Assembly: GCA_051294375.1 (NCBI GenBank)
Contig: CM119266.1
Location: 23,752,146-23,816,145 of the forward strand
Origin: Paraspadella gotoi
Lineage: Eukaryota > Animalia > Chaetognatha
DNA length: 64,000 nt
Direction: 5' to 3'
The translations under genes and the position numbers were made by a program. Below, in pieces: positions 18,348 to 61,430 of this stretch (positions are counted from its first letter, which is position 1; every line of letters starts with the position of its first letter). The notes under the pieces are model-generated. The model was given only the letters and a program-made list of their open reading frames with translations, was not told the DNA's origin and did not search any database.

Positions 18348-18454
<107 letters not shown>

Positions 18455-19257: not shown

Positions 19258-19392
<135 letters not shown>

Positions 19393-20634: not shown

Positions 20635-20677
<43 letters not shown>

Positions 20678-22777: not shown

Positions 22778-22850
<73 letters not shown>

Positions 22851-23127
22851 TAGAAAAAGAGAAAATTGCACTGCGATTTGTTAAAATGATGTGGGCAAAG
22901 AAGATAAGAGAAAGGTAAATAGTAAAAAAAAAGTAATAGAAAAATAGAGAAAGAAGATTATGGGGACGAGGGAATGAGAAAAATGGGGATGAGAATGAAA
23001 GAGACAGAGAGATTGAGAGATTAGAGAGCGAAGATGGCCGAGATTTTTTGGGGGGAGGGCGATGCGGGAGAGAGGGGGGGTCTTACGGAGCGCGGAGCTA
23101 GAGGCGCGAGCACACACGCAACGGGCG

Positions 23128-23443
23128 TCAACCTCGCAGCAGACGCCGTCGGCAGACCCCGGCGAACTGTCGAGTTTTGTGCATGGCGTCCTTCCGCCGC
23201 CGCCGCCGCCCGTGCCGCCGCCCCCGTCAACCTTGAGTCCTCGATCTTCTGCTTTTCTTCTCTCCTTCATCCTGCGGTTCTGGAACCAGATCTTGATCTG
23301 TCTTCGGTGAGGCAGAGGGCGTGCGCACATCTCGATGCGCCGCGCCGCGTCAGGTACGGTTGAAGTGGAATTCCTTCTCCAATTCCAGCGTCTGATAGCG
23401 CGTGTAGGTCTGGCGCCCGCGTTTTCGCGGCGGAGTTCAACGC
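23128..23443 (-). pseudogene. Frameshifted duplicate of the Hox homeobox exon (probably an assembly artefact)
   Basis: Nearly identical to 17427-17746 but with many 1-bp indels; [13 protein letters not shown] survives in one frame. It lies inside the duplicated block 21240-27475. Confidence 0.7.
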
Positions 23444-24041
23444 CTGCGAAGAGAGAGGGGGAGCGGAAGAAAAAGGTGATTAAATGTCATTTTCTATTCA
23501 ATCCTATTCACTCTTTATCATTAAAAAAAAATCTAACATTGGCTCGACGAGACAGGATAGCGTCTGGATAATTTATGTTATGTAAAATTATGTTGAGAGA
23601 CATTTTAAAAGTAAGCTAAGAGATGATAAGCAGTATCTGAGATCGATGCAAATGCCCCAACTTTCGGTCTACATTTAGCGCTGATGCAACTATATTATAT
23701 TTTTCGCTCAAATCAAGCACCCCGCTCCCGAAATACCCTACATCGAAAGAAGGAACGAATTCTAAATCCAGATCCTCGCGACAGACGCGACGGAAAAGGA
23801 AATCTCCCCCCCCTTCCGCCCCCCGTATCCTTTTCTCTCCCTCTTTTCCGCCGATTTCGGGGTCGGCAAATTCGGGTCGCTGCCAAAGGATTTGGTGGCC
23901 CGTGATTTTTCTATGGGCTCCGCGAGATTCTATGTGATTCTATGGGGCCGCTTTCGGGGCCCCATGGGGACGCGAAGTTACGCGCGTTCAAACCGCGTGA
24001 TCGTCCGCGTCGGGTGCTGAGAGGGGGCGAAGGGAGGTGGA

Positions 24042-24108
<67 letters not shown>

Positions 24109-24908
24109 AGGCCTGAGTGTCTAGTAAGATTGCACACAATTTTTTTCTCAGCCATTATACGATACCTCGATAAAACCGTATCACAAACTTTGTATCGACT
24201 TGAGCAATTTGTTGTTTATCTATCCTTCATATTTTGTATTTTTAACCTCAATACAAAAACCTGGTTGTCTCTTCCATCAAATCAAATCCCTCTCTCTTTT
24301 TAGACGTTTTATGCGCCTATGATGGTCTTCTGTTTTTGCCGAGCGGAAGTCTCCCTCTCCCTCTGTCTCTCTCTTCTCTCTCGTCTGTGTTGTGGGATAT
24401 TTTGGGAGCGCCTCTGGCGGCTTTGGCGGCGCCACGGGTCCCAGGAGCGCCGTTCGAAAAAGATTACAAAGGAGTTCAAAGGCGCTCCTTCAGAGGGCGG
24501 AGCGGGCGGCGACGGAGGGCGGGGACGGGCGGCCGAACAACGCTGTCGCCCGCGCGCAGTCTGTTTTGACAGGCGCGGATGGGAGGGGGCGGAACGGGAG
24601 AGAAACACAAAACGAAACAGACAAACAAGAATGGATGGAGAAGAAAGGAGAGGAGATAGTCAGGAAAGAACTTTCATTTTAATATTAATAAGTTCAAATT
24701 TAAAACAAATATTGCCAGTTTAAATGTCAAAATTTTGAAAATTTTGAAAATTTTAAAGAAGAAATTAAATTTGATAGGTAAAATAAAAAACTCTATTTAT
24801 TAGTTGTTGAATTTTAAATTTTTCTGAATTTAGTCGTCCTTAAAAAAATTCTCAAAAATTATTTTTTCATTCATACTGTCAATTGTTCTCTCTCTCCTCG
24901 AGCCCCCA

Positions 24909-24965
<57 letters not shown>

Positions 24966-27544
24966 CTCCTCTCTCTCTCTTCTCCATTTTTTTCGGGGTT
25001 TGGGCTGCCTCAGCATAGCCCTTTGATCTCCTTTCTTCTTTTTGAACTGAATCCCTATGCATTCCCCTTTTGGACGAACAGAGACCGAAAATTTCGAAGC
25101 TTTCAAGGCGAAAGAATTTTTTTTTCTAGCGCCGTGACTCTCTCTCTCTCTCATCTCTCTCTCTCATCTCTCTGTCTCTCTCTCTCTCTCTCTATGCTCT
25201 TCCTCTCTTCCGGTCTCTCTCCTCTCTCGTTCGGTACTTCTCTCTCTCTCGTCTTCTGGCTCTCTGCTCCTGCTCTCTCGCCCCTCCTCTCTCTCCTCTC
25301 TCTCTCTCATTTCACAACTTTTTCTTTTTTTGTGTTCTTTTATATTCAAGACTCCTTTATTTTCACAAGTTCAGTATATACAGTATAAGTAATTACCCTT
25401 AGGGACTTTTTTGAAACAGCGGTTCTTTTCTCACGCAGGCCTCTTTTCACGCACACGAGGCAAAAAGCTAAAGAACCACGCCGAAATTTCGTTTCACAGA
25501 AGAATAACATTTTGACATTTGGGATAAACAGACTGTTAGAAACAGTCTCTCTCTCTCTCTCTCTCTGCTCCTCTCTCTCTCTCTTCTCTCTCTCTCTCTG
25601 CTCTCTCTCTCTCTCTCTCTCTCACTCCGATATAGACAATCATCAAACTGCGAGCGTTTGAAAGAAGGGCGCAGAGTCGTTTTCCTCTTCCCTCTTCCTC
25701 CTCCCCGTTGGCTAAGCTGGTAGCAGTTTCCTCGCTCATCCGTCCGATTCCCCCCTCTCGGCCTCGTTTTCTTTTTCCGCGCCCTTTCTCTCTCTCTCTC
25801 TCGCTCTCGCTCTCCTCGCTCTTCCGCACGGGCATAAATAACGGGGTTTACGATCGCAGCATTGAAAGTTTAACTGGGCTTTTATCGCCGGTTATTAGTA
25901 CCATTTCCCCACTACTTACAGCAACGTTACTGCGGGAAAAAACAAAATCAGCTGTTTCTTGCCCCGTCTACGGTCCGGACGGACCCGCAGATTTGTTTCC
26001 CAAAGATTGAGAGAGAGAGAAAGAGGGAGAACAAAAAAAAAAGGAGAGAAAAGTGGAGAAATATAAAAGGAGACGATATTAAACATATTACTAACTTCTA
26101 TCAAAACAAAGAAATAAAAGAGAATGTGAATAGTCAAATCTGCGCCAAATTGTTTTCATTTTTAGGTAATTTCCGACGCAATATGTAAAAGATTAGTGTA
26201 AACGCAAAAACCAGGAACAATAATACGTCCAGATAAATATTGCGGCATTTTTTTTTTTTTTTACAATTACTTAAGCAGTTGCACTTTTAAGGGAGCGACT
26301 CCAGCAGCAAAAAAATTAATTTATATGATACAGCACGGTAAGAGCCAATGTAATTCAATGCAATGAATGCAATAAACAACAGAATCGCGACCATCTATTC
26401 TCCTCAAAGCCTTCGTCTTCATCGACACACAGTGGCATTCCAGTTCTCGCGGACCCCGATAGAGGTCACTCGAGTTCCGAGCGCCGACGACGAGATGGGG
26501 TCGACCTCCGGAACCGGAAACGCGAGCGGAAAAAGAATAAATTCTTGGCCGGTGAGAAGAAGAGCGGAAAAGAAGAATGGAAGAGAAGTGAAATTAAAGA
26601 GTGGAAGCGGTGAGAAAGGAAGACTAAGCGAACTTTAGCGATTGTGTTTGAGATAAGGGGAGTGAAGAGTAGTGAGAGGATGGAGTAAAAGTGGCCCAGA
26701 AAAGTGGAGATAAAACTGTGAAAAAAAGAAAGTGGGAACGAAAACTGCGATTCGTAAGACACGTTTTAAACCACCACCACCAAATCACGATAGAGGTTAT
26801 AACAATTTTGCGAAATATGAAACATAACGATCACCAGGGGCATTGCGAATTTGGCTAGGAAACTGACGCCAGGAGTGCTTGGGTCGTGATGACAAACAAG
26901 ACGACACGCACGACGACGAGACGACGACGACGAAAGAGGGAGAGAACGAGATGCTCATCGATTTTCTTTATGGAGTGAGATGGAAGCGCAGCGTCTTAAT
27001 GTGATTCACGGCCGACGAGAAAATACCGGATTTCGATATCCATCGGGATATCGACTCTCTTCTCTTTGCAAAAAGATAGACTCTTTCTTTCTTTTCTTTT
27101 TCTCTTTCTTTCTTCTTTTTTTGTCTTCCTCGCTTTTTTGTCTCTTTTTATTATTTTATTCTCGCCGTTTTATTTGTCTGTTCATACTTCCTTCTTTTTT
27201 TTGGCTTCCTATTTTTTCTTTTTTTGTTAAAAAAAGCCTATAATAGCTAATGTTTTATAATACCCAACACACTTGAAGTAAAGTCGATCGGAGAGACACA
27301 AAAATTAATACACGCAAATTTTATTATTTTGCCGTCACTTTGATTACTAATAAGATTAGATCTTTTGGGATTCCTGCGAGCTGTTGCATCTCGTGAGGTC
27401 CAAATATTTTTATAGTGAAAATAATTTTCTGATATATTAGAAAAATACATGAATTTTCCATCTCTCTCTCTCTCTCTCGTCTCTCTCTCTCTCTCTCTCT
27501 CTCCTCTCTTCTCTTCTCTCTTCTCTCTCTCTCTCTCTCTCTCA

Positions 27545-30911: not shown

Positions 30912-31890
30912 CTGCGAGGCTCATCCAAGGATAAAAAGGGGTGGGCGGACCCTGGGACTGTTGGTGGCCGTTGTAGTTGCACTGGGAGGAGATGTTGTGC
31001 ACGGGGCTGTGCCCGTTGGGATCCTGTTGTTGGGACACTGGGTGCCCCTGTTGGAAACCGTCGTGAGAAAGGCCGACGGCCCCGAGACCCTGGTTTTGAT
31101 GAGATGAGTACGAGTTGCCCAGCACGGGGCTGTGTTGCCCGCCGTGGGGCGGCGTTTGATTCGGGTGGGGCGACCACCGATTCGGGTGTCCTTGCACCGT
31201 TGGTTGCTGCTGCTGTTGCTGCTGCTGCTGGTGGTGAGAGTACGGGTGTCCGGCCGCCTGACCTATGTGACCGGGGATGGCGCCTCCGTAAGTGTCTCCG
31301 CATAGCGTCATTTTCCCGTAGTCGTTTTCGTTGGGCGTTCCAGGCGCGCCGGTGGCGCCGGGAGGTTGGTACGCGGAATAGTCGGCGCCGTGGGCCGCGG
31401 CGCCGCCCATGGAACCGACGCTCGGACAGCGCGGGGAAGAGGCGACGGCGGCGGCCGAGGCGGACAACGCCGCGCCGTGGCAAGAGTACGAGGACGGCGC
31501 CGAGTTTTGGTTCATCGCCGGGTGATGTTGTGGTTGCTGCTGTTGTTGTTGTGGATGGTGCTGCTGAGGTCCGGCGTTCCCCCAACCGTTCGTCGTCGGG
31601 TACTTGTGACCGGCGCCGCCGCCAGCCCCGCCGCCGCCGCCGTTGACCACGTCGGCGGGCAGGCCGGGCGTGTGGGATTGATGTGGAGGCGTCGACTGTT
31701 GTGGGTGCTGTTGCTGGGAGGAGAGGGGCTGATTTTGATGGAGGGGCTGAGAGTGGGGCGTGGGTTGAGGATAGCCGCATGGACCGTAGGCGTTGGAGCT
31801 GTGGTGGTTCAGCGAGGTGGGGTAGCCGTTGTCCAGGACGGGAGTGTCGCCACCCCGCGACAGGATCGTCTCCACGTTGTAAGTAGTCAT
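30912..31890 (-). CDS. Central Hox gene (Ubx/Lox2/abd-A-like), exon 1: N-terminus with hexapeptide
   Basis: ORF MTTYNVETIL..., rich in Q/H/G/P/A, ending PPTPFYPWMSLAG at the donor GCAG|GTGATT (phase 1). Splicing to 17746 gives [21 protein letters not shown], 432 aa in total. Confidence 0.93.
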
Positions 31891-32294
31891 TTTATCAACA
31901 CTCCCTAGTAATATTTGATGAGAACCGAGTTAACTTTTTCAGAGACACTTTCAATAATATTCGTTTTTTGTAAATTTTATTAAAAGAATATTTAAGAAAA
32001 TTCGCAGTTTGTTTTTCTTTCGTTATCGAGGTATTATTTTTGTTTTTCCCGCCATGAGTCAAAAAAAAGAGAGAGAGAGCGTTAGGAGAAAAGTTTTTTT
32101 TTTAAGTCGTCGTTTTTCCAGTTTGTTTTATTTTATTTCTCAAGTTTCTTCTTTATTTTTTCCTTCTGTTTTTATCGATAAGATTTCGATCGGTAAAAAA
32201 AAAGAAGTCATTCGGCGGACGACGTCTTTTTCTTCTTCTTCCTCGTCTTCGTTCTCCGCTTGATTTGCGACTTTCACGGGGAAAGCAATGCACT

Positions 32295-39507: not shown

Positions 39508-39976
39508 ACTGGGCTTCACGACTGTTCGCAGCTGTTCGTAGTTGGACGCGAAAATCTCGTCTCGGTCAAGGGATTCGTTCTCCTGGCTTCTTTTTTTTTC
39601 AGTGTGAAGCGATCTGTTGAGGCCCTCGGGTTCAAGTTTGGATTTTCTCCGCCGTCTTCGCGCCCTTTTTTCGGTTTCGGTTCTCAAGAATAAGTTTCAC
39701 AGAAAAATTCAAGAAAAATTCAAGAAAAATTTTTTAACAAGATCGGACCATAAAATATTTCTGAAAATGTAATAAGATGTTTTTTAAAATGGAGATACTG
39801 AAATATTATATCAATTTTAAATCTCTAATCACTATTCTCTAATCACTTCTTACAAATTTTTATCAGACAACGTCAAAACTGGAACGATATTTAAAAATCG
39901 CGAATTTACAAAGCGTTAAAGATTCAACTGGGCCGGACTTCGCTCGAATGTGACAATTTTCTCTAAAAAAACGAAA

Positions 39977-42604
39977 ATGATTAAAGCAGCGATAAAAAAG
40001 GAGAAAATTGAATCTTCTCAACTTAAAATAAACAGTTTTTTCTCTCGAGGCAAACGGGTCGAGATCAACGAGCAGATGGGCGACGCCAGCGAGAATAATA
40101 ATAATAAGAACAATAAGAACAACAACAACAACGAAAACATAGACGGCGACGGATCTCAAGGATCTTCGGAACCTGCCGTCGAAAGTCCTCAAACCCCTCG
40201 CTCCGAGATTGCCGCAGAATCTTCCGACGCGAGCGACGAAACTCCTCGTCCGTCCGAATCGTCGCCCGTGCCGACGGCAGACTCGGAAGCGGAGCGTATT
40301 CGACAGGGCGCGCTCAATCAGCTGGCGCGACTCGAGGGCATCACCGTCGAGCAGTTGCTGGCAAAGCTGCAAAAGAAAAGGAGTGTGGCGAAGGCGTCGA
40401 CGGGGATGTCGAAGGTCGCGGGGACGAAGGAGAGAGAGACGACGGAGGAGGAGGCTGCCAAAGGTGGATCTCGAGTTCCAAGAAAAGCAGCCGCTCTCAC
40501 AGCAGCCGCCGCTGCCAAGCCGCCCGTCGACTCCTCTGCGCCACCTCGAAAAGCTGCAAAGACGTGCAGTGATCACGTGACTTCTTCCAGACTCCCGTCG
40601 AATTCACCGTCGGAGTTCAATGGCGAAGATCAGAGTCAAACCTCCAACGCTAAAACCCTAACTGTAAAAGATCTGCCCGTCAAGCAAGCAAAGAAAGCGT
40701 CTTCCTCCCTAGCACCGGCTTCCATCAAAAGAGAATCGAATTCAAATATCATCCGGAAGAAACCGAGAACGAATCCCACCAAGACAACTGCAAAGGCGAC
40801 TTTAAAAGATACGATGAAGACTACTAAGGCGAAGCTACCGACGACAACGATGCGGAAGCCTAAAGGAAGCGAGACCCTGGCAGCGATTGTCAAGAAGGAA
40901 AGAATGAGAGACTTTGTGAACGAAGAAGATGACGAAAACGACGACGAAAACGACGATATCGACGACGAAATTGACGAGGAAAACGACGACGAAGACGAAA
41001 TAAACGAGCGGCTAAAGAATCTCAAAAGCGAGAAAGTCACTCAGTCCAACGTGACTAAAAAGAAAACGAAAAAGAAGATTCCCGTAATTAAATTCGAGCC
41101 GAGATTCGTGGACGAGGGCGACGACGACATTGAGGAGGTCGTTCCGCAGAAGAGGAAACGGAAGCAGTCGCTGACGCCGGTTTCCAAGGCAACGCTGAAG
41201 AAGATGAAACGCGAGCGGAAATCGATCCAAGCTGACGCAGAGGACGAAGATGCCGCAACCGATGACTACATGGACAGCGAAATCACGCCGAAGGCACGGT
41301 CCCCGAAATCTAAGAAGAACTTGTCGGACGAGGAGCCATTAAAACTCAATCTTCTAGACGACGACTCATCCTCTAAAGCCTCGTCCACGAGAAGAAGCGT
41401 CGCGCTGACGGTGTCCATTTCTCCGGTGGATGACCGAGACTGGCGCATTTTCGGAAGCGGGTCGCCGAGAACAACTTCGGGTGCTGCAAAGAGGAAAGGG
41501 GACGATTCCAACGCCTCGTCGACTCCAAAGAGGCGGATGTCAGTTTCGTCTCAAACTATGACCCATTCCGAGAAGAAGACGAAGATGACAACGAAAACGA
41601 CGACGACCCCAAAGACAAAGAGGCCCAAGGGGAGAACGTCTCTTCCAACGAAACTCTCATCTCCGACCTTGATACCTCAGCGACGCGTCTCTTTCGCCCA
41701 ACAACGATACGATCAAACAAAGGACTGTCAAAATGACCATAACTCTATCGCCCCTCGGTCTCCGTGGGGCGCGGACGTGAAGAACAAGATGCTGCAGCTC
41801 AAAACAACGTCGACCAAATCCGCCGGCGTCCGAGGATCTCGAGGCTTCAACGATTCCACGACGCGCTGGTGGAAGAGCTACATCTTGAAGGACATCAAAT
41901 TGTACCGGTTGCCCTTTGTCAAGATTCGGAGATGCGAAGCCAAGGTCGTCGTTGAAAGTGGGCGTGGTCGATTGTCGGAAGATGAGCATGACCCGAGATC
42001 TTCCTTTGAGATGCCATCTACGAAGTTAACCGCGGCGTCGAAAAAGTCTACAAAGGCGCCCAGAAAATCGTCGCCAAAAACGACGCCGAATTCGACGAAA
42101 ACTCTGACACAGACGACGACGACGACGAAGAAAACAAAAGAACCTAGAAGTAAAATCAATTCGGCATCACTACCAAACACTTCGACGCGTCCTCGAAGAA
42201 ATGATGATGATGACTCGCCCTCCAATCGCCTTTCCGGTTCCGAGAGAATTCAATCGACTACAACAGCTCCGTTACGAGATACCGAATCAATTGCTGCTCC
42301 CGCTGCGGAACCTGCTGCCGCACCTGCTGCCGCACCTGCTGCCGCACCTGCTGCCGCAACTTCTCCGCGTCCTCCCGCACCTTCTCCCTCGCCTCCTCCA
42401 GCGTCACCACCCGAAAGCAGCGAAGACGACGACGACGACGACGACGAGCTCGAGCTTCTCCGCGTCGTTTTGTCCAAAGATCGACTCAAGGTTAAATGTC
42501 AAGTCTGCGACGAGACGCTCAAGCGATGCCGGGACTTTAACGCGGACGACGTTCTCTCTGGCGTCACGGCCCACGTCATGGAACACGCGCGGACGCTGGG
42601 GTAG
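39977..42604 (+). CDS. Intronless 875-aa Lys/Ser/Thr-rich disordered nuclear protein with an N-terminal PIP box and a C-terminal C2H2-like zinc finger
   Basis: 2.6-kb uninterrupted GC-rich ORF, first ATG at 39977. Motifs: QLKINSFF (40019-40042), an acidic DDE tract, NLS-like KRKRK, RRVSF (41681-41695), PFVKI (41912-41926) and C-x2-C-x21-H-x3-H (42497-42586). Confidence 0.85.
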   Translation: MIKAAIKKEKIESSQLKINSFFSRGKRVEINEQMGDASENNNNKNNKNNNNNENIDGDGSQGSSEPAVESPQTPRSEIAAESSDASDETPRPSESSPVPTADSEAERIRQGALNQLARLEGITVEQLLAKLQKKRSVAKASTGMSKVAGTKERETTEEEAAKGGSRVPRKAAALTAAAAAKPPVDSSAPPRKAAKTCSDHVTSSRLPSNSPSEFNGEDQSQTSNAKTLTVKDLPVKQAKKASSSLAPASIKRESNSNIIRKKPRTNPTKTTAKATLKDTMKTTKAKLPTTTMRKPKGSETLAAIVKKERMRDFVNEEDDENDDENDDIDDEIDEENDDEDEINERLKNLKSEKVTQSNVTKKKTKKKIPVIKFEPRFVDEGDDDIEEVVPQKRKRKQSLTPVSKATLKKMKRERKSIQADAEDEDAATDDYMDSEITPKARSPKSKKNLSDEEPLKLNLLDDDSSSKASSTRRSVALTVSISPVDDRDWRIFGSGSPRTTSGAAKRKGDDSNASSTPKRRMSVSSQTMTHSEKKTKMTTKTTTTPKTKRPKGRTSLPTKLSSPTLIPQRRVSFAQQRYDQTKDCQNDHNSIAPRSPWGADVKNKMLQLKTTSTKSAGVRGSRGFNDSTTRWWKSYILKDIKLYRLPFVKIRRCEAKVVVESGRGRLSEDEHDPRSSFEMPSTKLTAASKKSTKAPRKSSPKTTPNSTKTLTQTTTTTKKTKEPRSKINSASLPNTSTRPRRNDDDDSPSNRLSGSERIQSTTTAPLRDTESIAAPAAEPAAAPAAAPAAAPAAATSPRPPAPSPSPPPASPPESSEDDDDDDDELELLRVVLSKDRLKVKCQVCDETLKRCRDFNADDVLSGVTAHVMEHARTLG

Positions 42605-43280
42605 CGGGTGGGGAGAGGGAACTGACGGAACCGGATTATCTCTGACTTAAAAATATTTTTAATCTCTTCTTTATATGTTTTTAAATATCCTTCTCAAGAA
42701 ATTTTGATCCAGTCTTTCATACTCTTGCCGTAGCGTCGTTTTATTGGTTATTTTACATTTTACTTGTTACCCAATTAGTATTGGGCATTTTACCCATTAT
42801 CTCTTGAAATAAAGTGATTTTTCGGTATTTAAGATTTTACTGAATGACAGCTCCAATCTTAGTTAAAATTAACAAAACAGGTTTAGAACTGGCGGTTTCT
42901 GAAAACCAACTTCATGAAATCGTGTTTTTTGACCTTAAAAACATATAAAAATACAGCTAAGACTAATAAAGCAAAGAAACGAAATATTATAAGGTATTAC
43001 AATAATATATAAAGTTAAATTGGCAAGGTTTAACCAACGGCTTTCTTTTCTTTTTCGAGGTTTTTAAAACTTGAAAATTTTTTTAGCAAAAAAATAGAAG
43101 CCAGAACAGTGCTCCGCTGCTGTGTGATGGCTCAGCCTAACCCGACTGAGCTTAATTAAGAGACTGAACTTTTTTATGGTTCCGAAGCTGATGACTCCGA
43201 GACTCCGAGGGACGAAATTCACGTGTTTTTTTTTTCTTTTTTCAAATTTTTTTTTGGAAGAGGTGACGTAAGCGGCACAG

Positions 43281-43426
43281 GAGCAGGTGCCCTCAGAACG
43301 AACATGTGTTCGTGAGAGAGGCGTTTCTCCCGTCCTTTTTCGAAAAGGGGAAAAGAACAGAATGGAGAAAAAAAAACCTCTCCCGTTTTAAACCGACACA
43401 TGCTCGGCTCTACAGGGTAAATGCTC
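43281..43426 (-). ncRNA. mir-10: miR-10-family microRNA precursor (miR-57/miR-10/miR-993-like); predicted 5p mature 43419-43398, UACCCUGUAGAGCCGAGCAUGU
   Basis: The 5' end UACCCUGUAGA is identical to miR-10 and miR-57. It pairs with ACACAUGUUCGUUCUGAGGGCA (43309-43288) through Watson-Crick and G-U pairs with two single-base bulges and one mismatch. Basal stem GAGCA/UGCUC. It is on the same strand as the Hox gene. Confidence 0.85.
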
Positions 43427-44456
43427 GGCTGGCGAAAAAAAAATCTCTTTTCAGTTCTCGCGCTTTTTGTTTTCTTGACGTTTATTTTAGGCATTTTTCT
43501 TTGATTTCGTCGTTGTTGTTGTTGTTTTGATCGTTCGCAATGGAATTTTAAGAATGGAGACGAGCGATAAAAGGGTTAAAAAGAGAGAGAGAGAGAGGGA
43601 GAGAGAAAAATTGGATGTGAATCGAGGATTTTCGTCGACGTGGCCGTCGCCATTTTCTCATTCGTCGGCGTCGTCGTCATCGTCGTCGTCGCCTCTTTTG
43701 TCGTCGCGGTTTTTAGGGTCGCATTCCACATTTTCGCCATTCCGCAGTTGGACACCACAAGCGAGAGCGAGAGCGAGAGAGAGAAGGAGCCAGAGAGAGA
43801 GAGAGAGAGATACGACGTCGATGAGCGCGAAAACCGCATGAAGACGACCACGACGACGACGATGGCGACGATGGCGACGAGGGCGAAGTGTTGACAAGCG
43901 GAAGGCGAAGAAAAGTTCATTGGCCGTCCGCGAATTATCGGGGTGAGGAGTGAAGCTTTTTTTAGGGGAAGTGGAGTAAGTGAAGTGAAATGCGCATAGC
44001 GTGAAGATCGCGGCAGTGTGAATCTAGTTGCAAAATCAACTGTGATAGAAAGAGGGCGAGCTACGTCAGCGATGATGTTAATGAATCCAGTGGCAGGTTG
44101 TGCAACTGATATGAGTAACCACGAGATAATGGCGCCCGAAACGGGTAGAGAATACCAGATGAAAAGGAAAGGGAGGAGAGGAAAGAAAGAGAGAAAAGAA
44201 AAATAAAAGACAAATAAAGAGTAAAATTACATTAGTAAATAAAAGACTCAACGGTGTTTTAGGTCGGAAGGTGACTGGAAAATAACAAAAGGCTTGTGAA
44301 GTGAGAGAGAGAAAGGGAGAAAGAGAGACAAAGAAAGAAAGAGAGAGAGAGAGAGACGCTGTTGCATCACGACGAGAAAGAGCGTGGATTGCAGATGGAA
44401 CCAAAGGATCAGGTGTTTAGAAGAAGAATGAGAAAGAGAGGTTGGGAGAGGGGAGA

Positions 44457-44497
<41 letters not shown>

Positions 44498-45932
44498 CAG
44501 AAAGAAGGCGATGAAAAGGAGACCAGCGGAGCCCAAGAAGGAGGTCAGAACACGCCGCAGAAAAGATAGGAAAAGATAATGAGGAGAAAAGGAATAAAAT
44601 ATAAAAGGGAGCGAGAACGAAGAATACAAAAGAAAGGGGACGAAGAAAAGAAAAAAGACCCCCGGTCGGTCGTGTCCGGATAGCGTTGGAACTATCGTCG
44701 TCATCGTCGTCATCTTCGTCGTCGTCGTCATCTGGATAAATGTCATCGTCTTCTATTTTTTTTCGCTAATATTTCGATGTAATTGTTGTTAGCGTAGCAT
44801 ACATCTAAGTTTTAGTTATAGATAAATTATAGTTATTCATTTTGTCCCATTTTAAGGATGTGATCGTCGTCATGATCTTTATCGGTGTCTGCTTTTTCGT
44901 CGTCTTCGTCGTTTTCATTGTCACCTCTTCGTCATCATCGTCGTCGTCGTCATCGTTTCTGTTGGCGTCATCCTCGTCGGTTGTTGTCGACTTGCCGACG
45001 CTCGGGGGTGATTAGAGCGGCGTCGGCGGCGTCGGCGGCAGCGTCGGCGGCGTCAGAATCAGGGGCGGCGTCGGCCTTTCAGGTTCGCGCGTCTGAAAAG
45101 TGGAGGTGGGGTGAAGGGAGAGGCGTGGCGGTGACGGGGCGGTTGGGAGGGCGTCGACCGTCGGCGGGAGGCGACGAAAACACAATGCGAGGAGAGACCA
45201 AAGGAGCCAAGATTCTTTCCCCGAATTCTCTTACTTGCAAAAATATCAGCAGTGCACACCAATATACTATTCAACTTACTTAACAATCAATCGTTAAACT
45301 CGCTCAGTTATTTCCCTCCACCTCATTGAGGTCCTCACTGAGGTCCTCACTGATGTCCTCAGCCGACAACATTCTACCAATTCATTCCCCAAACTGAACC
45401 TTTAAATAAACCGCCACCCCATCACATAATATATATTAAATAATATAGGTTAGATAGTAAAGCCTTGAACATTGATATTAAAATGGTTGGACCAATTTGA
45501 TAAAATATAAAAATAGAAAATGGCGAAATGAGTAATTTTTTTTTCCAAATTTTCTAACATTCTACCATTCTCTCTCCGCTTTCTCGACTCATCCCCCTTT
45601 TCAGATTTCCCGACTTTTTCCTTCATTTTCTCACTCAATTCTTGTCTTCAGGAAGAATTACTTTTTTTTTTAGTGGCCCAACTGTAAAAGTTACAATGAT
45701 TCCTCCCACATTTCCGACTCTTGAATGTGGAGCCGATTTGTCGATTCCTCGACGTTAACGAGGCGCCCACGGACCCCCTGTCGCTCCTACCCTGGCTCAA
45801 GTCTGCCTCCCCAGGTCCCCCTACAACCTCACTCCCAGCGCCGTTCGTTCCCGCCCGCAACATTCGGTCCCCCCCCCTAAGAGACGCGGTTACCATGGTG
45901 ATCCGTGTTGAGACGAACGCCGAAAGGGGGGC

Positions 45933-45976
<44 letters not shown>

Positions 45977-46177
45977 GGATTTTGCGACGAAAAAAATTAC
46001 AAAACATTCGTGAAAAAAAACTCGCACATGTCGAAATATTAAGTATTTTAAGGTGATGATCGCATTTTTGCGCGAGTGAGACGGCTGGTTGTCTCACTCT
46101 CACTCGCTATATCTCGCTCTCAGTTCTTGCGGCGCCGCTTGTTGTCTTTCCCTCCTCACTGCTGTTGCCAGTGCAGT

Positions 46178-46273
<96 letters not shown>

Positions 46274-46668
46274 CAGCACTGGTGACGTGTGCGCTCGCAT
46301 TCCGCCTGTCGGGTGGAAGAGCAGAATGACGCGTTGAGTGGATGGAGGAGGAAGAGCGCCGGAAAGAGATGGGGAGGAGATTGAATGTAGTTGTAAACGG
46401 AATCTGCAATGAGAGCAGAGGAAAGAAAAGAAAAACATTGGGGAGGAACGAGAGCGAATAACGACCACGAGATTATGTAAGATAAATTTGTGGATGATTT
46501 AATCCGTTTATCTTCATCCGTTTGTTTTTAACTTTTTTTATAATCTTTAATGGCTTAGCAGGTTTGTTAAGATTCTTTTACCATAACTGATAAACTAGAG
46601 TTTAAAAATAAGGGGGAAAGGGAAGATAGAAAGGTGGTACAGGAGAGACGAGGGGGAGAGCAAGAGAG

Positions 46669-46750
<82 letters not shown>

Positions 46751-47807
46751 AAAGCGTCTTAAAGGTCACCCCTAAACTCTTGAGGCTGAAATGAGATAAA
46801 CTCGGCAAGAGAATGTGGTCCTGGGAAAATAACACGAGAAAGACAGAAAGATAAATGTTTTTTTTCGTGAGAGGGAAAAGAAATAGATGCAAGAGAGTGA
46901 TTAAAAAACTAGAGCATCTTACAATGCTAAATAATCCTTAAAATAAAGTTTAAAATGCTGAAGAACTAAACTTAACAACTGAAAAAAATATAAGGGGATT
47001 TATCTTTGTTTTTCGTTATTGGAGTCACCGTTTGCGATATTCTTTCTGGATTGAAGTGGTTAAATCTTTGGTTTTTCGGGGTTTTTTTTCTGGTTGCGGT
47101 TTATCCATAATTTGAACGTTTGATTTTCGACGTGGGAGACGTCCGAAAGTTCGATTAAAATAATCAGAAATAAATGGGTCGAAGATGTAATCGAATCGCA
47201 GAGATATTTTTCAGTTTAAACTTTTTTAAAAGTTCAAGTAATTCTAAAAACTTGTAAAGAACAGCATGGCCGTGTTTTGTTTAGCAAGACGATTATTTTG
47301 TACAATTGTACAAACATATACTTCCGATAAAGACGAAAAAAAAAATAAAACGAGTCTTCGCCAAAACTAACCCGAAGCATTAGAGATGAAAAAAATTAAA
47401 AAACACGCACGTACACTCAGCAAAAAAAAGGCAGAGAAAGAGAGAAAAGGCGAGAGGACCAGATTTGGAAACAGTCGAGAGAGGCGGCAGGACGCGTCTT
47501 CGCGCCTTTTTTTCGGTTTCGGTTCTCAAGAATAAGTTTCACAGAAACCACAAGAAAAATTTTTTAACAAGATCGGACCATAAAATATTTCTGAAAATGT
47601 AATAAGATGTTTTTTATTTTTAAATGGAGATACTCGAAATATTATCTCAATTTTAAATTCTAATAACTATTCTCTAATCACTTCTTACAATTTTATCAGA
47701 CAACGTCAAAACTGGAACGATATTTAAAAATCCGAATTTACAAAGCGTTAAAGATTCAACTGGGCCGGACTTCGCTCGAACGTGACAATTTTCTCTAAAA
47801 AACGAAA

Positions 47808-50443
47808 ATGATTAAAGCAGCGATAAAAAGGAGAAAATTGAATCTTCTCAACTTAAAATAAACAGTTTTTTCTCTCGAGGCAAACGGGTCGAGATCAACG
47901 AGCAGATGGGCGACGCAGCGACGAAATTAGCGAGAATAATAATAATAAAACAATAAGAACAACAACAACAACGAAAACATAGACGGCGACGGATCTCATG
48001 GATCTTCGGAACCTGCCGTCGAAAGTCCTCAAACCTCTCGCTCCGAGATTGCCGCAGAATCTTCCGACGCGAGCGACGAAACTCCTCGTCCGTCCGAATC
48101 GTCGCCCGTGCCGACGGCAGACTCGGAAGCGGAGCGTATTCGACAGGGCGCGCTCAATCAGCTGGCGCGCTCGAGGCATCACCGTCGACAGTTGCTGGCA
48201 AAGCTGCAAAAGAAAAGGAGTGTGGCGAAGGCGTCGACGGGGATGTCGAAGGTCGCGGGGACGAAGGAGAGAGAGACGACGGAGGGGAGGCTGCCAAAGG
48301 TGGATCTCGAGTTCAGAAAAGCAGCCGCTCTCACAGCAGCCGCCGCTGCCAAGCGCCCGTCGACTCCTCTGCGCCACCTCGAAAAGCTGCAAAGACGTGC
48401 AGTGATCACGTGACTTCTTCCAGACTCCCGTCGTCGGAAGCGGCGACGAATTCACCGTCGGAGTTCAATGGCGAAGATCAGAGTCAAACCTCCAACGCTA
48501 AAACCCTAACTGTAAAAGATCTGCCCGTCAAGCAAGCAAAGAAAGCGTCTTCCTCCCTAACACCGGCTTCCATCAAAAGAGAATCGAATTCAAATATCAT
48601 CCGGAAGAAACCGAGAACGAATCCACCAAGACAACTGCAAAGGCGACTTTAAAGATACGATGAAGACTACTAAGGCGAAGCTACCGACGACAACGATGCG
48701 GAAGCCTAAAGGAAGCGAGACCCTGGCAGCGATTGTCAAGAAGGAAAGAATGAGAGACTTTGTGAACGAAGAAGATGACGAAAAACGACGACGAAAACGA
48801 CGATATCGACGACGAAATTGACGAGGAAAACGACGACGAAGACGAAATAAACGAGCGGCTAAAGAATCTCAAAAGCGAGAAAGTCACTCAGTCCAACGTG
48901 ACTAAAAGAAAACGAAAAAGAAGATTCCCGTAATTAAATTCGAGCCGAGATTCGTGGACGAGGGCGACGACGACATTGAGGAGGTCGTTCCGCAGAAGAG
49001 GAAACGGAAGCAGTCGCTGACGCCGGTTTCCAAGGCAACGCTGAAGAAGATGAAACGCGAGCGGAAATCGATCCAAGCTGACGCAGAGGACGAAGATGCC
49101 GCAACCGATGACTACATGGACAGCGAAATCACGCCGAAGGCACGGTCCCCGAAATCTAAGAAGAACTTGTCGGACGAGGAGCCATTAAAACTCAATCTTC
49201 TAGACGACGACTCATCCTCTAAAGCCTCGTCCACGAGAAGAAGCGTCGCGCTGACGGTGTCCATTTCTCCGGTGGATGACCGAGACTGGCGCATTTTCGG
49301 AAGCGGGTCGCCGAGAACAACTTCGGGTGCTGCAAAGAGGAAAGGGGACGATTCCAACGCCTCGTCGACTCCAAAGAGGCGGATGTCAGTTTCGTCTCAA
49401 ACTATGACCCATTCCGAGAAGAAGACGAAGATGACACGAAAACGACGACGACCCCAAAGACAAAGAGGCCCAAGGGAGAACGTCTCTTCCAACGAAACTC
49501 TCATCTCCGACCTTGATACCTCAGCGACGCGTCTCTTTCGCCCAACAACGATACGATCAAACAAAGGACTGTCAAAATGACCATAACTCTATCGCCCCTC
49601 GGTCTCCGTGGGGCGCGGACGTGAAGAACAAGATGCTGCAGCTCAAAACAACGTCGACCAAATCCGCCGGCGTCCGAGGATCTCGAGGCTTCAACGATTC
49701 CACGACGCGCTGGTGGAAGAGCTACATCTTGAAGGACATCAAATTGTACCGGTTGCCCTTTGTCAAGATTCGGAGATGCGAAGCCAAGGTCGTCGTTGAA
49801 AGTGGGCGTGGTCGATTGTCGGAAGATGAGCATGACCCGAGATCTTCCTTTGAGATGCCATCTACGAAGTTAACCGCGGCGTCGAAAAAGTCTACAAAGG
49901 CGCCCAGAAAATCGTCGCCAAAAACGACGCCGAATTCGACGAAAACTCTGACACAGACGACGACGACGACGAAGAAAACAAAAGAACCTAGAAGTAAAAT
50001 CAATTCGGCATCACTACCAAACACTTCGACGCGTCCTCGAAGAAATGATGATGATGACTCGCCCTCCAATCGCCTTTCCGGTTCCGAGAGAATTCAATCG
50101 ACTACAACAGCTCCGTTACGAGATACCGAATCAATTGCTGCTCCCGCTGCGGAACCTGCTGCCGCACCTGCTGCCGCACCTGCTGCCGCAGCCAACTTCT
50201 CCGCGTCCTCCCGCACCTTCTCCCTCGCCTCCTCCAGCGTCACCACCCGAAAGCAGCGAAGACGACGACGACGACGACGACGACGAGCTCGAGCTTCTCC
50301 GCGTCGTTTTGTCCAAAGATCGACTCAAGGTTAAATGTCAAGTCTGCGACGAGACGCTCAAGCGATGCCGGGACTTTAACGCGGACGACGTTCTCTCTGG
50401 CGTCACGGCCCACGTCATGGAACACGCGCGGACGCTGGGGTAG
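47808..50443 (+). pseudogene. Frameshifted second copy of the 875-aa gene (probably a haplotype or long-read artefact)
   Basis: Colinear with 39977-42604 and broken into several ORF fragments by 1-bp indels. It also carries an in-frame 15-bp insertion (SEAAT, about 48431) and different Asp and Ala-Pro repeat counts. Confidence 0.7.
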
Positions 50444-51115
50444 CGGGTGGGGAGAGGGAACTGACGGAACCGGATTATCTCTGACTTAAAAATATTTTTA
50501 ATCTCTTCTTTATATGTTTTTAAATATCCTTCTCAAGAAATTTTGATCCAGTCTTTCATACTCTTGCCGTAGCGTCGTTTTATTGGTTATTTTACATTTT
50601 ACTTGTTACCCAATTAGTATTGGGCATTTTACCCATTATCTCTTGAAATAAAGTGATTTTTCGGTATTTAAGATTTTACTGAATGACAGCTCCAATCTTA
50701 GTTAAAATTAACAAACAGGTTTAGAACTGGCGGTTTCTGAAAACCAACTTCATGAAATCGTGTTTTTTGACCTTAAAAACATATAAAAATACAGCTAAGA
50801 CTAATAAAGCAAAGAAACGAAATATTATAAGGTATTACAATAATATAAGTTAAATAGGCAAGGTTTAACCAACGGCTTTCTTTTCTTTTTCGAGGTTTTT
50901 AAAACTTGAAAATTTTTTAGCAAAAAAATAGAAGCCAGAACAGTGCTCCGCTGCTGTGTGATGGCTCAGCCTAACCCGACTGAGCTTAATTAAGAGACTG
51001 AACTTTTTTATGGTTCCGAAGCTGATGACTCCGAGACTCCGAGGGACGAAATTCACGTGTTTTTTTTTTCTTTTGTCAATTTTTTTTTTTGGAAGAGGTG
51101 ACGTAAGCGGCACAG

Positions 51116-51261
51116 GAGCAGGTGCCCTCAGAACGAACATGTGTTCGTGAGAGAGGCGTTTCTCCCGTCCTTTTTCGAAAAGGGGAAAAGAACAGAATGG
51201 AGAAAAAAAAACCTCTCCCGTTTTAAACCGACACATGCTCGGCTCTACAGGGTAAATGCTC
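51116..51261 (-). ncRNA. mir-10: Second copy of the miR-10-family precursor in the duplicated block (mature 51254-51233)
   Basis: Same mature, star and inner-stem sequences as 43281-43426. It lies in duplicate block 47495-55369, so it may not be a separate locus. Confidence 0.6.
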
Positions 51262-52313
51262 GGCTGGCGAAAAAAAAATTCTTTTCAATTCTCGCGCTTT
51301 TTGTTTTCTTGACGTTATTTTAGGCATTTTTCTTTGATTTCGTCGTTGTTGTTGTTGTTTTGATCGTTCGCAATGGAATTTTAAGAATGGAGACGAGCGA
51401 TAAAAGGGTTAAAAAGAGAGAGAGAGAGAGAGGGAGAGAGAAAAATTGGATGTGAATCGAGGATTTTCGTCGACGTGGCCGTCGCCATTTTCTCATTCGT
51501 CGGCGTCGTCGTCATCGTCGTCGTCGCCTCTTTTGTCGTCGCGGTTTTTAGGTCGCATTCCACATTTTCGCCATTCCGCAGTTGGACACCACAAGCGAGA
51601 GCGAGAGCGAGAGAGAGAAAGGAGCCAGAGAGAGAGAGAGAGAGATACGACGTCGATGAGCGCGAAAACCGCATGAAGACGACCACGACGACGACGATGG
51701 GACGATGGCGACGAGGGCGAAGTGTTGACAAGCGGAAGGCGAAGAAAAGTTCATTGGCCGTCCGCGAATTATCGGGGTGAGGAGTGAAGCTTTTTTTAGG
51801 GGAAGTGGAGTAAGTGAAGTGAAATGCGCATAGCGTGAAGATCGCGGCAGTGTGAATCTAGTTGCAAAATCAACTGTGATAGAAAGAGGGCGAGCTACGT
51901 CAGCGATGATGTTAATGAATCCAGTGGCAGGTTGTGAAACTGATATGAGTAACCACGAGATAATGGCGCCCGAAACGGGTAGAAAAATACCAGATGAAAA
52001 GGAAAGGGAGGAGAGGAAAGAAAGAGAGAAAAGAAAAATAAAAGACAAATAAAGAGTAAAATTACATTAGTAAATAAAAGACTCAACGGTGTTTTAGGTC
52101 GGAAGGTGACTGGAAAATAACAAAAGGCTTGTGAAGTGAGAGAGAGAAAGGGAGAAAGAGAGACAAAGAAAGAAAGAGAGAAGAGAGACAAAGAAAGAAA
52201 GAGAGAGAGAGAGAGACGCTGTTGCATCACGACGAGAAAGAGCGTGGATTGCAGATGGAACCAAAGGATCAGGTGTTTAGAAGAAGAATGAGAAAGAGAG
52301 GTTGGGAGAGGGG

Positions 52314-52383
<70 letters not shown>

Positions 52384-53815
52384 GAGAGAGACAGAGAGAG
52401 AGCAGAAAGAAGGCGATGAAAAGGAGACCAGCGGAGCCCAAGAAGGAGGTCAGAACACGCCGCAGAAAAGATAGGAAAAGATAATGAGGAGAAAAGGAAT
52501 AAAATAAAAAAGGGAGCGAGAACGAAGAATACAAAGAAAGGGGACGAAGAAAAGAAAAAAGACCCCCGGTCGGTCGTGTCCGGATAGCGTTGGAACTATC
52601 GTCGTCATCGTCGTCATCTTCGTCGTCGTCGTCATCTGGATAAATGTCATCGTCTTCTATTTTTTTCGCTAATATTTCGATGTAATTGTTGTTAGCGTAG
52701 CATACATCTAAGTTTTAGTTATAGATAAATTATAGTTATTCATTTTGTCCCATTTTAAGGATGTGATCGTCGTCATGATCTTTATCGGTGTCTGCTTTTT
52801 CGTCGTCTTCGTCGTTTTCATTGTCACCTCTTCGTCATCATCGTCGTCCTTCGTCATCGTTTCTGTTGGCGTCATCCTCGTCGGTTGTTGTCGACTTGCC
52901 GACGCTCGGGGGTGATTAGAGCGGCGTCGGCGGCGTCGCGGCAGCGTCGGCGGCGTCAGAATCAGGGCGGCGTCGGCCTTTCAGGTTCGCGCGTCTGAAA
53001 AGTGGAGGTGGGGTGAAGGGAGAGGCGTGGCGGTGACGGGGCGGTTGGGAGGCGTCGACCGTCGGCGGGAGGCGACGAAAACACAATGCGAGGAGAGACC
53101 AAAGGAGCCAAGATTCTTTCCCGAATTCTCTTACTTGCAAAAATATCAGCAGTGCACACCAATATACTATTCAACTTACTCACAGTCAATCGTTAAACTC
53201 GCTCAGTTATTTCCCTCCACCTCATTGAGTCCTCACTGATCACGATTCTCAGCCGACACATTCACAATTCTTCCCCAAACGGAACCTTTAAATAAACCGC
53301 CACACCATCCATAATATATATTAAATAATATAGGTTAGATAGTAAAGCCTTGAACATTGATATTAAAATGGTTGGACCAATTTGATAAAATATAAAAATA
53401 GAAAATGGCGAAATGAGTAATTTTTTTTTCCAAATTTTCTAACATTCTACCATTCTCTCTCCGCTTTCTCGACTCATCCCCTTTTCAGATTTCCCGACTT
53501 TTTCCTTCATTTTCTCACTCAATTCTTGTCTTCAGGAAGAATTACTTTTTTTTTTAGTGGCCCAACTGTAAAAGTTACAATGATTCCTCCCACATTTCCG
53601 ACTCTTGAATGTGGAGCCGATTTGTCGATTCCTCGACGTTAACGGGCGCCCACGGACCCCCTGTCGCTCCTACCCTGGCTCAAGTCTGCCTCCCCAGGTC
53701 CCCCTACAACCTCACTCCCAGCGCCGTTCGTTCCCGCCCGCAACATTCGGTCCCCCCCCCTAAGAGACGCGGTTACCATGGTGATCCGTGTTGAGACGAA
53801 CGCCGAAAGGGGGGC

Positions 53816-53859
<44 letters not shown>

Positions 53860-54061
53860 GGATTTTGCGACGAAAAAAATTACAAAACATTCGTGAAAAA
53901 AAACTCGCACATGTCGAAATATTAAGTATTTTAAGGTGATGATCGCATTTTTTGCGCGAGTGAGACGGCTGGTTGTCTCACTCTCACTCGCTATATCTCG
54001 CTCTCAGTTCTTGCGGCGCCGCTTGTTGTCTTTCCCTCCTCACTGCTGTTGCCAGTGCAGT

Positions 54062-54156
<95 letters not shown>

Positions 54157-54553
54157 CAGCACTGGTGACGTGTGCGCTCGCATTCCGCCTGTCGGGTGGA
54201 AGAGCAGAATGACGCGTTGAGTGGATGGAGGAGGAAGAGCGCCGGAAAGAGATGGGGAGGAGATTGAATGTAGTTGTAAACGGAATCTGCAATGAGAGCA
54301 GAGGAAAGAAAAGAAAAACATTGGGGAGGAACGAGAGCGAATAACGACCACGAGATTATGTAAGATAAATTTGTGGATGATTTAATCCGTTTATCTTCAT
54401 CCGTTTGTTTTTAACTTTTTTTATAATCTTTAATTGGCTTAGCAGGTTTGTTAAGATTCTTTTACCATAACTGATAACTAGAGTTTAAAAATAAGGGGGA
54501 AAGGGAAGATAGAAAGGTGGTACAGGGAGAGACAAGGGGGGAGAGCAAGAGAG

Positions 54554-54635
<82 letters not shown>

Positions 54636-56635
54636 AAAGCGTCTTAAAGGTCACCCCTAAACTCTTGAGGCTGAAATGAGATAAACTCGGCAAGAGAATG
54701 TGGTCCTGGGAAAATAACACGAGAAAGACAGAAAGATAAATGTTTTTTTTCGTGAGAGGGAAAAGAAATAGATGCAAGAGAGTGATTAAAAACTAGAGCA
54801 TCTTACAATGCTAAATAATCCTTAAAATAAAGTTTAAAATGCTGAAGAACTAAACTTAACAACTGAAAAAAATATAAGGGGATTTATCTTTGTTTTTCGT
54901 TATTGGAGTCACCGTTTGCGATATTCTTTCTGGATTGAAGTGGTTAAATCTTTGGTTTTCGGGGTTTTTTTCTGGTTGCGGTTTATCCATAATTTGAACG
55001 TTTGATTTTCGACGTGGGAGACGTCCGAAAGTTCGATTAAAATAATCAGAAATAAATGGGTCGAAGATGTAATCGAATCGCAGAGATATTTTTCAGTTTA
55101 AACTTTTTTAAAAGTTCAAGTAATTCTAAAAACTTGTAAAGACAGCATGGCCGTGTTTTGTTTGCAAGACGATTATTTTGTACAATTGTACAAACATATA
55201 CTTCCGATAAAGACGAAAAAAAAAATAAAAACGAGTCTTCGCCAAAACTAACCCGAAGCATTAGAGATGAAAAAAATTAAAAAACACGCACGTACACTCA
55301 GCAAAAAAAAGGCAGAGAAAGAGAGAAAAGGCGAGAGGACCAGATTTGGAAACAGTCGAGAGAGGCGGCTGCTGCGGATGTAATAAAAATTCTGTATCGC
55401 CGCTGCTGACGCCGCGTCGATAGTTCCTGCGGCCGGCGCGGCTTTTTTTTTTTTTTTTTTTTTAGATTCGCCGCGGCGGCGGAGAGGGGAGAGCGTCGGC
55501 GGGCCGCTCCGCGTCGGCCCAGCCTTTGATCCTCGACGNNNNNNNNNNNNNNNNNNNNNNNNNAGGGCAAAAAGGGAGAGAGACGAAAAGAGGGAGAGAG
55601 GGAGGGGGGCTGGAGAAAGAGGTAAAAAGTCTGGGTGTGAAGGGAAAAGGGGGGGAAAATTCTCTCATGATCTCATCCAGACAAACTTGGCAAAAAACGC
55701 AAGGCATCTTTCATTTTGAAAAATTCACGAAAAAATAACGGATCTTTTTAAATAATTAAATATAAATCATCATTAGTTGTCGCGCTTCGTTTCTCTCATT
55801 GGATCACCCAAGAGAAGCTTTTCTTCGAATTCTAATTTTCTTTTTTGTTCTTTTTGTCGATGCGGATCGAACTGAGTAAATCCTTCTCTGGCTTTGCCTA
55901 TCGCATTATCTTTTGGGTCTCATTCTTTCCCAAACTCAACTTCTCCAATCAATTGCACTTAATCAACACGCACGGCTTAGCTTTTACATAACTCCTGAAA
56001 GGTACAACTGTTTCATATGTTGACTGTTATTTGCAGTCTCAAAAGTCACAGCGGGCTAAAACAGCCTCTTGCTTTCGATTAATGTCTGCTCGACATTCCT
56101 GACATTCCTTCTCTTCTCAGGGTATTGTCAAAATACTTTATATTATCGGTTCTGTGCAAAAATTGCTATTTTGTCTTTCCCAACTCGCCAAAAAGTCATA
56201 CCAGCTTTTTTTCTCCCTCACCCAGTCAAGCACCCATAAATCCTCGTTACCCGAAAGGTCAAAATTCTCTCCCGATTATTCTTCGAGTCGTAGTATCGGA
56301 CTGCGAATCGTCGAGTGAGTCTTTGATGCGGCTGCTCCGACCGTCCGGAGCGGCGCTGCTGCACCGGTCGGCGCGGCAGATCCCACAAAGGGCCACAAAT
56401 GCCAGTGGTATAAAGATTGCGTCGGCAATAGTAATGATAAATTGGGTGACTGAAGAGAGGTCTTTTTATGAAGCAAGGGGATAGTTTTTTTCGCAGAAGC
56501 AATGGTCCAGTTACTTTTGCTATTCTGATTTCCTGTATGGGAGGCCTTTGCATTGACAAAAACTTATCCTTTCGAAACCTGGGTCTCCTCTGATATGCAA
56601 ATTGAATTCCGAGCGAATGTAAACAAGGATTTTTA

Positions 56636-57692: not shown

Positions 57693-57871
57693 GAGGCAAT
57701 GTTTGAATTAATTTGCAACGACGATTTATTTTTAGAGAAAAACGTACTTATTTCGGCTTAGGTACAAGTCAATTAGTTTTTAACGCTGAAGAAGGCTTGT
57801 ACCTAAGCCGAAATATGTACGTTTTTCTCTAAAAATAAATCGTTGATGCAAATTAATTCAAACTATGCCTC
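57693..57871. repeat. Foldback inverted repeat (78-bp arms, 23-nt loop); possible MITE or hairpin RNA
   Basis: Arms 57693-57770 and 57794-57871 are reverse complements with about 6 mismatches. No clear target-site duplication. Confidence 0.9.
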
Positions 57872-60813: not shown

Positions 60814-61430
60814 CTTAGTTAAAATTACAACCAAAAACGAGGTTTAGCAAAACTGGCGGTTTTCTGAACAAACCAACTTCATAAGAAATCCCGTGTATAT
60901 TTGACACCTTAAAAACATACTATACACAGCTACAGAACTAATAAAACCAAGCAAAGAAACGCGAAATATTATAAGGTTATTACAATAATATACTTACAAG
61001 TTAATTGAATTTTAGGTTTTCCACCAAGGTTTAACACCAACCGGCTTTATTTTTCCTTTTTCGAAGGTTTTTAAAAACTCTGAAAATTTTTTTTAGCCTG
61101 GCGAAAAAACATTTCAAGAAGCGCAGAACAGTGCCTCCGGATGCACGTTCTGCTGGTGGTGATGGCTCAGAACCTAACCCGACTTGAGCTTAATTAATAA
61201 GAAGACTGGAACTTTTTTATGGTTCCGAAGCTGATGACTCCGAGACAGTCCGAGGGTGACGAAAAATTTCACGGTTTTTTTTTTTTTTTCTTTTGTCAAA
61301 TTTTTTTTTGGAAGAGGTGACGATCACTCCCCGTATGAGGCACCCATATCTAAGCGGGCACTACGGAGCAGGTGCCCGCGCACCTCTTAATCAGAACGAA
61401 CAATTGGGTGTTCGCTGGAGAGAGCGACGG
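60814..61430. repeat. Noisy, insertion-rich third copy of about 42858-43325 (reaches only the miRNA 3p arm)
   Basis: Shared anchors such as aactttttatggttccgaagctgatgactccgagac and ggagcaggtgccc..tcagaacgaaca, with many inserted bases, a pattern typical of an uncorrected long read. Confidence 0.8.

Follow-up and report, generated by a model that had tools for sequence, protein, structure and literature searches.

The window, by which we mean the whole 64,000-nt stretch of DNA that was analysed, carries on its minus strand a Mir-10-type hairpin (43440-43270) and, on that strand too, a PG8 (Lox2-like) Hox gene 11.4 kb further downstream. The first coding exon of the Hox gene (30912-31891, minus strand) is an open reading frame that ends just past the YPWM hexapeptide, and its splice phase matches that of the homeobox exon of the same gene (17427-17746, minus strand); the open reading frames of the window included no further Hox gene that was recognised. 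A gene whose two RRM domains lie on short exons, two in number (1644-2698, plus strand), and further open reading frames at 3533-4738 (plus strand) and 11599-12600 (minus strand) show that non-Hox genes directly follow the Hox gene. An 894-residue low-complexity open reading frame (39920-42604, plus strand) converges on the hairpin; it has no Pfam match and ends in a CxxC...HxxxH arrangement that by eye resembles a zinc finger, and the contigs of run X1, described below, cover this gene while skipping an intron.

The minus strand from 43440 to 43270 folds as a single long hairpin of -66.1 kcal/mol (z -4.95), and none of 200 dinucleotide shuffles of this region folded as well. The initial annotation had placed a mature arm at 43419-43398 and its partner at 43309-43288, and these arms do pair with each other: each of 1000 sampled structures contains 16 or more pairs between the arms, most arm-arm pairs have probabilities of 0.85-1.0, and the reverse-strand folding proposed as a check gives the same partner when 501 nt of context are included. 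The basal GAGCA/UGCUC helix described with them also forms (probability 0.94-1.0). The basal stem occupies 43421-43433 on its 5' strand and 43275-43284 on its 3' strand (both minus strand), the latter with a bulged U in a G-U-G at 43278-43276, and 13 nt separate its single-strand junction from the predicted 5' cut. Ranked only by energy, the hairpin does not come first among the folds of the window, so that its distinguishing mark is the sequence of the arms; a generic duplex scan of the window was too permissive to discriminate. Besides an identical copy, no second convincing Mir-10-type hairpin was found elsewhere in the 64-kb window. Ten nucleotides of the mature arm (43400-43409) are repeated exactly in the 5' flank (43421-43430), and an alternative register in which the 3p arm pairs with this upstream repeat is 10.8 kcal/mol worse. 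On the 3' side, the adjoining sequence (42858-43268) recurs with 78% identity at 60814-61322, a distance of 18 kb, suggesting a dispersed repeat.

Family identity was assessed against Table S1B of PMC12553114 (MirGeneDB 3.0 loci with their loops, 14,689 of 19,725 genes, ordered from long loops to short). The 5p arm carries the ACCCUGU core, and both comparison with the table rows by eye and alignment to four short-loop loci place it in the Mir-10 family, as first proposed. Read as 24 nt from 43420 the arm is identical to Mopalia Mir-10-P5 at 21 of 24 positions, while a start at 43419 gives 21 of 23 against Owenia Mir-10-P7 and 18 of 22 against chicken P1 (all by eye). It is distinct from all 12 Mir-10-P5 rows listed, and the arm taken as 21 nt has no exact match among the MirGeneDB table rows listed. 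By eye, the 3p arm has a core (UGUUCG...UUCUGAGGG) in common with the Mopalia P5 star; among the rows listed UGUUCG is present in 5 of 5 mollusc P5 hairpins, in none of 7 other P5 rows and in none of 4 short-loop loci from metagenomes. Since the 5p arm is equally close to annelid Mir-10-P7, it is the 3p arm that carries the assignment to P5 and with it the start at 43420. Taken together, the two arms probably find their best match in Mir-10-P5. The locus resembles the Mir-10-P5 genes of Mopalia, Lottia and Platynereis in its predicted UUACCC start, 5p arm, mollusc UGUUCG 3p core and Hox neighbourhood, and differs by three changes in the 5p arm (with Mopalia as reference) and by its loop, which is 14-20 nt in the 12 P5 rows listed versus 90 nt here. 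The annelid Mir-10-P7 genes, whose likeness in the 5p arm depends on a start at 43419, have 3p arms unlike the one found here, mostly of the CAAGCC... type, and loops of 14-23 nt (rows listed).

Mir-10-P5 is described, in the available part of PMC12257675, as a lophotrochozoan Hox-cluster paralogue whose start is shifted 1 nt in the 5' direction, and 10 of the 12 Mir-10-P5 rows listed start two bases before ACCC. The present sequence permits a UUACCC start shifted by one nucleotide. Taking the start from these rows and from the published shift, we predict a mature 5p arm of 24 nt at 43397-43420 (UUACCCUGUAGAGCCGAGCAUGUG, seed UACCCUG; ends taken from relatives), a 3p (star) arm of 22 nt at 43285-43306 (CAUGUUCGUUCUGAGGGCACCU; placed by pairing with 2-nt 3' overhangs at both ends), a Dicer-excised inter-arm region of 90 nt at 43307-43396 and a precursor of 136 nt, all on the minus strand. 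A 5' end at 43420 is more likely than the 43419 given by the initial annotation. As expected of a canonical microRNA, the predicted duplex joins two arms of 20-26 nt by at least 16 pairs with 2-nt 3' overhangs. A CNNC motif (CGUC, 43265-43268, minus strand) found by motif scan lies 17 nt past the predicted 3' cut, a spacing compatible with either register; further matches at +10, +20 and +22 make it weak when taken alone. The apical UGUG occupies positions 21-24 of the 5p arm and the bulged GUG lies within 1-2 nt of the place described for this processing motif, while neither a basal UG nor a CmR motif is present with either start. The 13-nt basal stem, the UGUG, the CNNC at +17, the star beginning with C and the unpaired first U match the propensities reported for MirGeneDB genes in the portion of PMC11701709 at hand.

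The spacer between the arms measures 88 nt by the limits of the initial annotation, in agreement with its figure; the predicted cut sites give 90 nt. Its fold contains an inner stem of three helices (43314-43384, minus strand). Helix 1 pairs GGGAGAGGU with GCCUCUCUC (43384-43376 with 43314-43322, probability 0.95-1.0), helix 2 pairs UUUCUCC with GGAGAAA (43370-43364 with 43324-43330, probability 0.6-0.9) and helix 3 joins 43359-43350 to 43331-43341 beneath an apical loop at 43349-43342. The first two had been foreseen; the apical CCUUUU/AAAAGG hairpin proposed with them is disfavoured (probability below 0.002) because its AAAAGG strand (AAAAGGACG) pairs with UGUUCUUUU at 43359-43351. As a unit, the three helices comprise about 26 predicted pairs interrupted by a 5x1 loop and a 4-nt bulge. 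The precursor is multi-stem, as it had been called, in having several helices, but in the best fold at 37 C these are stacked in one unbranched hairpin; a side hairpin of 3 bp forms in some 40% of folds (at 37 C, 413 of 1000 samples show another small hairpin loop within the spacer) and appears at 43393-43385 in the best folds at 10-25 C. This segment belongs to a largely unpaired 5'-side bulge beside the predicted Dicer site (43385-43395, minus strand; unpaired probability 0.6-1.0 at 43391-43385, 37 C), which by analogy is a candidate internal docking site for Pasha/DGCR8.

Folding gives no sign of selection on the inner stem, since the 90-nt spacer folded alone is only marginally more stable than its shuffles (53 of 1000 fold as well, z -1.8) and the arm duplex still forms in 299 of 300 trials with a shuffled spacer. 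The excised 90-nt piece is predicted to have unpaired ends of 12 nt and 7 nt, which do not look like those of a Dicer substrate. Compared with the window, the spacer has no convincing match besides the second copy, and none of the Rfam families matches it above chance. Derivation from a dispersed repeat was considered and rejected, the window matches being short T-rich words only. A direct repeat (17 of 19 positions) links the flank at 43430-43448 with the spacer at 43363-43381 at a spacing of 67 nt, and removal of 67 nt would leave a 23-nt loop. For an origin of the spacer by tandem duplication of 67 nt this is a weak hint only, with 30 of the 67 positions matching in register and comparable repeats in 13 of 197 window tiles.

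The predicted precursor of 136 nt bears out the initial description as abnormally long, at about 130 nt. It is true, as that annotation adds, that the usual length of animal precursors is 55-70 nt, with exceptions of up to >1 kb in print. A loop of about 90 nt represents a known invertebrate trait that is unusual for Mir-10: long hairpins arose repeatedly among invertebrates (PMC12553114, in the text available), and vertebrate, nematode and mollusc pre-microRNAs are reported to stay below 80 nt whereas those of arthropods, flatworms and rotifers have no clear limit (PMC11701709, in part). The cause of these limits is an open question according to the same account of MirGeneDB 3.0 (PMC11701709). 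The longest Mir-10 loop, among the first 30 of 797 places where 'Mir-10' occurs in the long-to-short table, is 59 nt (Tetranychus Mir-10-P2), a maximum valid for the curated table only, as Tables S3 and S5 of PMC12553114 (predictions for 1,414 arthropod genomes) may contain long members. The longest loops listed for other groups are 36 nt in molluscs, 91 nt in annelids (Eisenia Mir-1994), 27 nt in brachiopods, 24 nt in nemerteans and 23 nt in phoronids.

PMC12553114 characterizes extended microRNA hairpins by an inter-arm region of at least 42 nt, extensive pairing of the extension and an unpaired 5p-side bulge beside the dicing site. Here the inter-arm region is 90 nt, about 26 pairs are predicted in the extension (with a z of only -1.8 for the spacer alone), and the bulge is predicted at the expected place, where it may close into the 3-bp hairpin under cooler conditions. 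Drosophila mir-989, Daphnia mir-375, let-7 and mir-278, lepidopteran mir-12 and Eisenia Mir-1994 share with the locus conserved arms, a long inter-arm region that is paired (here by prediction), an unpaired patch beside the dicing site and a tendency to be missed by length-limited models, and mir-989 (99 nt) and Mir-1994 (91 nt) come near it in length. They differ in belonging to other families and, at the extremes of 238 nt to >1 kb, in being far longer.

On the whole it is probable that the locus, which lies upstream of the Lox2-like Hox gene, is a working Mir-10-P5-type gene of a spiralian with a loop enlarged to about 90 nt, and its processing is predicted to be canonical. Sequence and folding calculations show two arms that pair with each other, a basal stem, a long inner stem, a bulge on the 5' side and a Hox gene nearby. 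In the proposed sequence of events, Drosha/Pasha would crop a primary transcript of the minus strand at 43420 and 43285, and Pasha would dock on the bulge (43395-43385) instead of a nearby terminal loop. Dicer, measuring from the base of the 136-nt precursor, would cut at 43397 and 43306; the 90-nt piece would be discarded and the 5p arm (seed UACCCUG) would enter Argonaute to repress mRNAs, plausibly including Hox mRNAs. These cut sites, like the activity of the locus, are predictions of the model. The precedent is fly mir-989, which, with a loop of 99 nt, relies on Drosha and Pasha as well as Dicer-1 and requires both its paired extension and a 5p-side bulge near the dicing site (PMC12553114, available text). 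By analogy, canonical cutting by Drosha, Pasha and Dicer is likely for the present hairpin. The same source adds that long precursors are often poorly processed outside their own species. No seed site occurs within about 11 kb downstream of the stop codon of the neighbouring Hox gene, and a Hox target for oyster Mir-10-P5 is only a prediction in the part of PMC7488030 available.

The initial annotation had favoured relaxed or non-canonical processing, possibly with a second small RNA released by the inner stem; stepwise cutting would belong to the same reading. With about 26 predicted pairs in three helices the stem is long enough for a duplex, but these helices are broken by the 5x1 loop and the 4-nt bulge, the excised piece has long unpaired ends, and no Rfam family recognizes the spacer above chance; moreover the validated long lepidopteran mir-12 loci yield no small RNAs between their arms and mir-989 is cut canonically, so far as the accessible text of PMC12553114 goes. 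A layout like that of mir-989 needs neither non-canonical processing nor an extra inner small RNA, and we regard both proposals as very unlikely. It is somewhat easier to entertain, though still unlikely, that the hairpin is a decaying or poorly processed copy with an expanded loop (perhaps by a local 67-nt duplication) whose arms linger for lack of time or because a paralogue substitutes for it. A spacer barely more structured than its composition predicts, the missing basal UG and CmR, a 5p arm that differs from every P5 row listed and the direct repeat that ties the upstream flank to the spacer would fit such a history; yet the seed, both arms and the bulge are intact, as is the length of the basal stem, those positions of the 5p arm that have changed still pair with the 3p arm, and the repeat is of a kind common in the window.

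Handling of the transcript as a hairpin RNA by an RNAi-type Dicer to give endo-siRNAs, as for fly hp-mir-997-1, seems highly improbable. Its length is comparable to that of such hairpin RNAs (PMC12553114, in the portion seen), but the stem is heavily bulged and the conserved miR-10 arms sit in a microRNA register over a 13-nt basal stem. That the long loop is an error of assembly or sequencing in a patched, repeat-rich region is barely credible: the window does contain 12 N gaps and tandem duplications rich in single-base indels, but the spacer pairs internally and is no copy of other window sequence, and the hairpin is present a second time. This second precursor copy (51120-51255, minus strand) lies 7835 nt away within a 7.8-kb tandem duplication (39653-47488 and 47495-55369), between the two units of which there are 32 substitutions and 66 indels (49 being of a single base) while the hairpin is identical in every letter; agreement of the copies over the hairpin argues that its long loop is not a base-calling error. 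The contigs of run X1 (only guessed to derive from RNA; 45% of words present) have three early variants in common with copy 2 and then match copy 1, and they do not have the frameshifting single-base deletions of copy 2; they contain neither the hairpin nor Hox exon 1 and have no bearing on expression. This pattern of variants, together with duplicated ends that flank 25-N gaps, suggests that the assembly placed two alleles one after the other, and we infer that the second copy is likely an uncollapsed haplotype with long-read errors, a true recent duplication being the alternative. A second tandem duplication (15558-21231 and 21239-27487; 126 substitutions and 137 indels, 114 of a single base) carries a frameshifted copy of the homeobox exon at about 22900-23450 and looks like a long-read patch, not a second Hox gene.

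The suspicion that standard predictors could miss such a precursor was borne out. No Rfam family matched the window at the gathering cut-off, and the Rfam mir-10 model (RF00104, 74 positions), which represents the same family by arm sequence, did not match the locus at E up to 10 in either 2,001 or 231 bases. Among four short-loop relatives used as controls, three were matched weakly by RF00104 (19-22 bits versus a cut-off of 47.5), from which it follows that the model, besides being blind to a long loop, is weak for this P5-like paralogue. A model built from these four relatives also missed both copies of the hairpin among its 14 matches (E up to 5). Covariance models thus overlook such a gene, and it would be scored as a false loss. 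In a metagenome scan that gave 10 matches, four fold as short-loop Mir-10-P5-like hairpins in animal DNA (L001:735, L003:1019(-), L005:470(-) and L007:1019(-)) and six look like chance. None of the 10 is a long-loop relative, so that the fold has no covariation support. A literature search that covered few subscription papers found no earlier publication of the locus.

The locus appears to be a further, independent case of precursor lengthening, in a Hox-linked family whose curated members have loops of at most 59 nt (table rows listed), and it does not point to a new pathway. Because the 5'-side bulge lies where the model of an internal Pasha site predicts one, the locus can test this model outside arthropods. 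Pointers to the animal differ: it is likely a spiralian, the 3p arm is mollusc-like, and the Hox gene is unlike canonical Lox2. The Hox protein has the E in RRMKEKKE, mixes Lox2-like with Ubx/Antp-like residues, and its UbdA-like flank is only partial. Proteins P0034, P0207 and P0214, which we take to be Lox2, have the same E in RRMKEKKE and differ from the window Hox elsewhere in the homeodomain and in its flank. The only close orthologue of the homeobox exon found in protein searches is a metagenome protein (P0122) with the same homeodomain and a diverged tail; Hox exon 1 had no match in these searches, and the Hox signature was not found in the searched supplements of PMC10675955, PMC10509229 and PMC12852818. 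The available text of PMC12852818 describes PG8 genes of chaetognaths in which the UbdA-like motif is divergent, and the Hox gene could alternatively be of this chaetognath type. If the animal falls outside Lophotrochozoa proper, as a Hox gene unlike canonical Lox2 would allow, the origin of the P5 paralogue would be pushed back. It is possible, if rather doubtful, that we are dealing with a mollusc, to which the 3p arm points, and with a working Hox-linked Mir-10-P5 that has a 136-nt precursor. The locus would then break the published rule that mollusc pre-microRNAs are <80 nt (the longest mollusc loop listed being 36 nt) and would offer a way to test why precursor length is capped in some clades.

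Elsewhere in the window, an AT-rich and nearly perfect inverted repeat (57693-57871), each arm about 80 bp long, is the strongest fold for its GC content; it may represent a MITE-like element or else a hairpin RNA.
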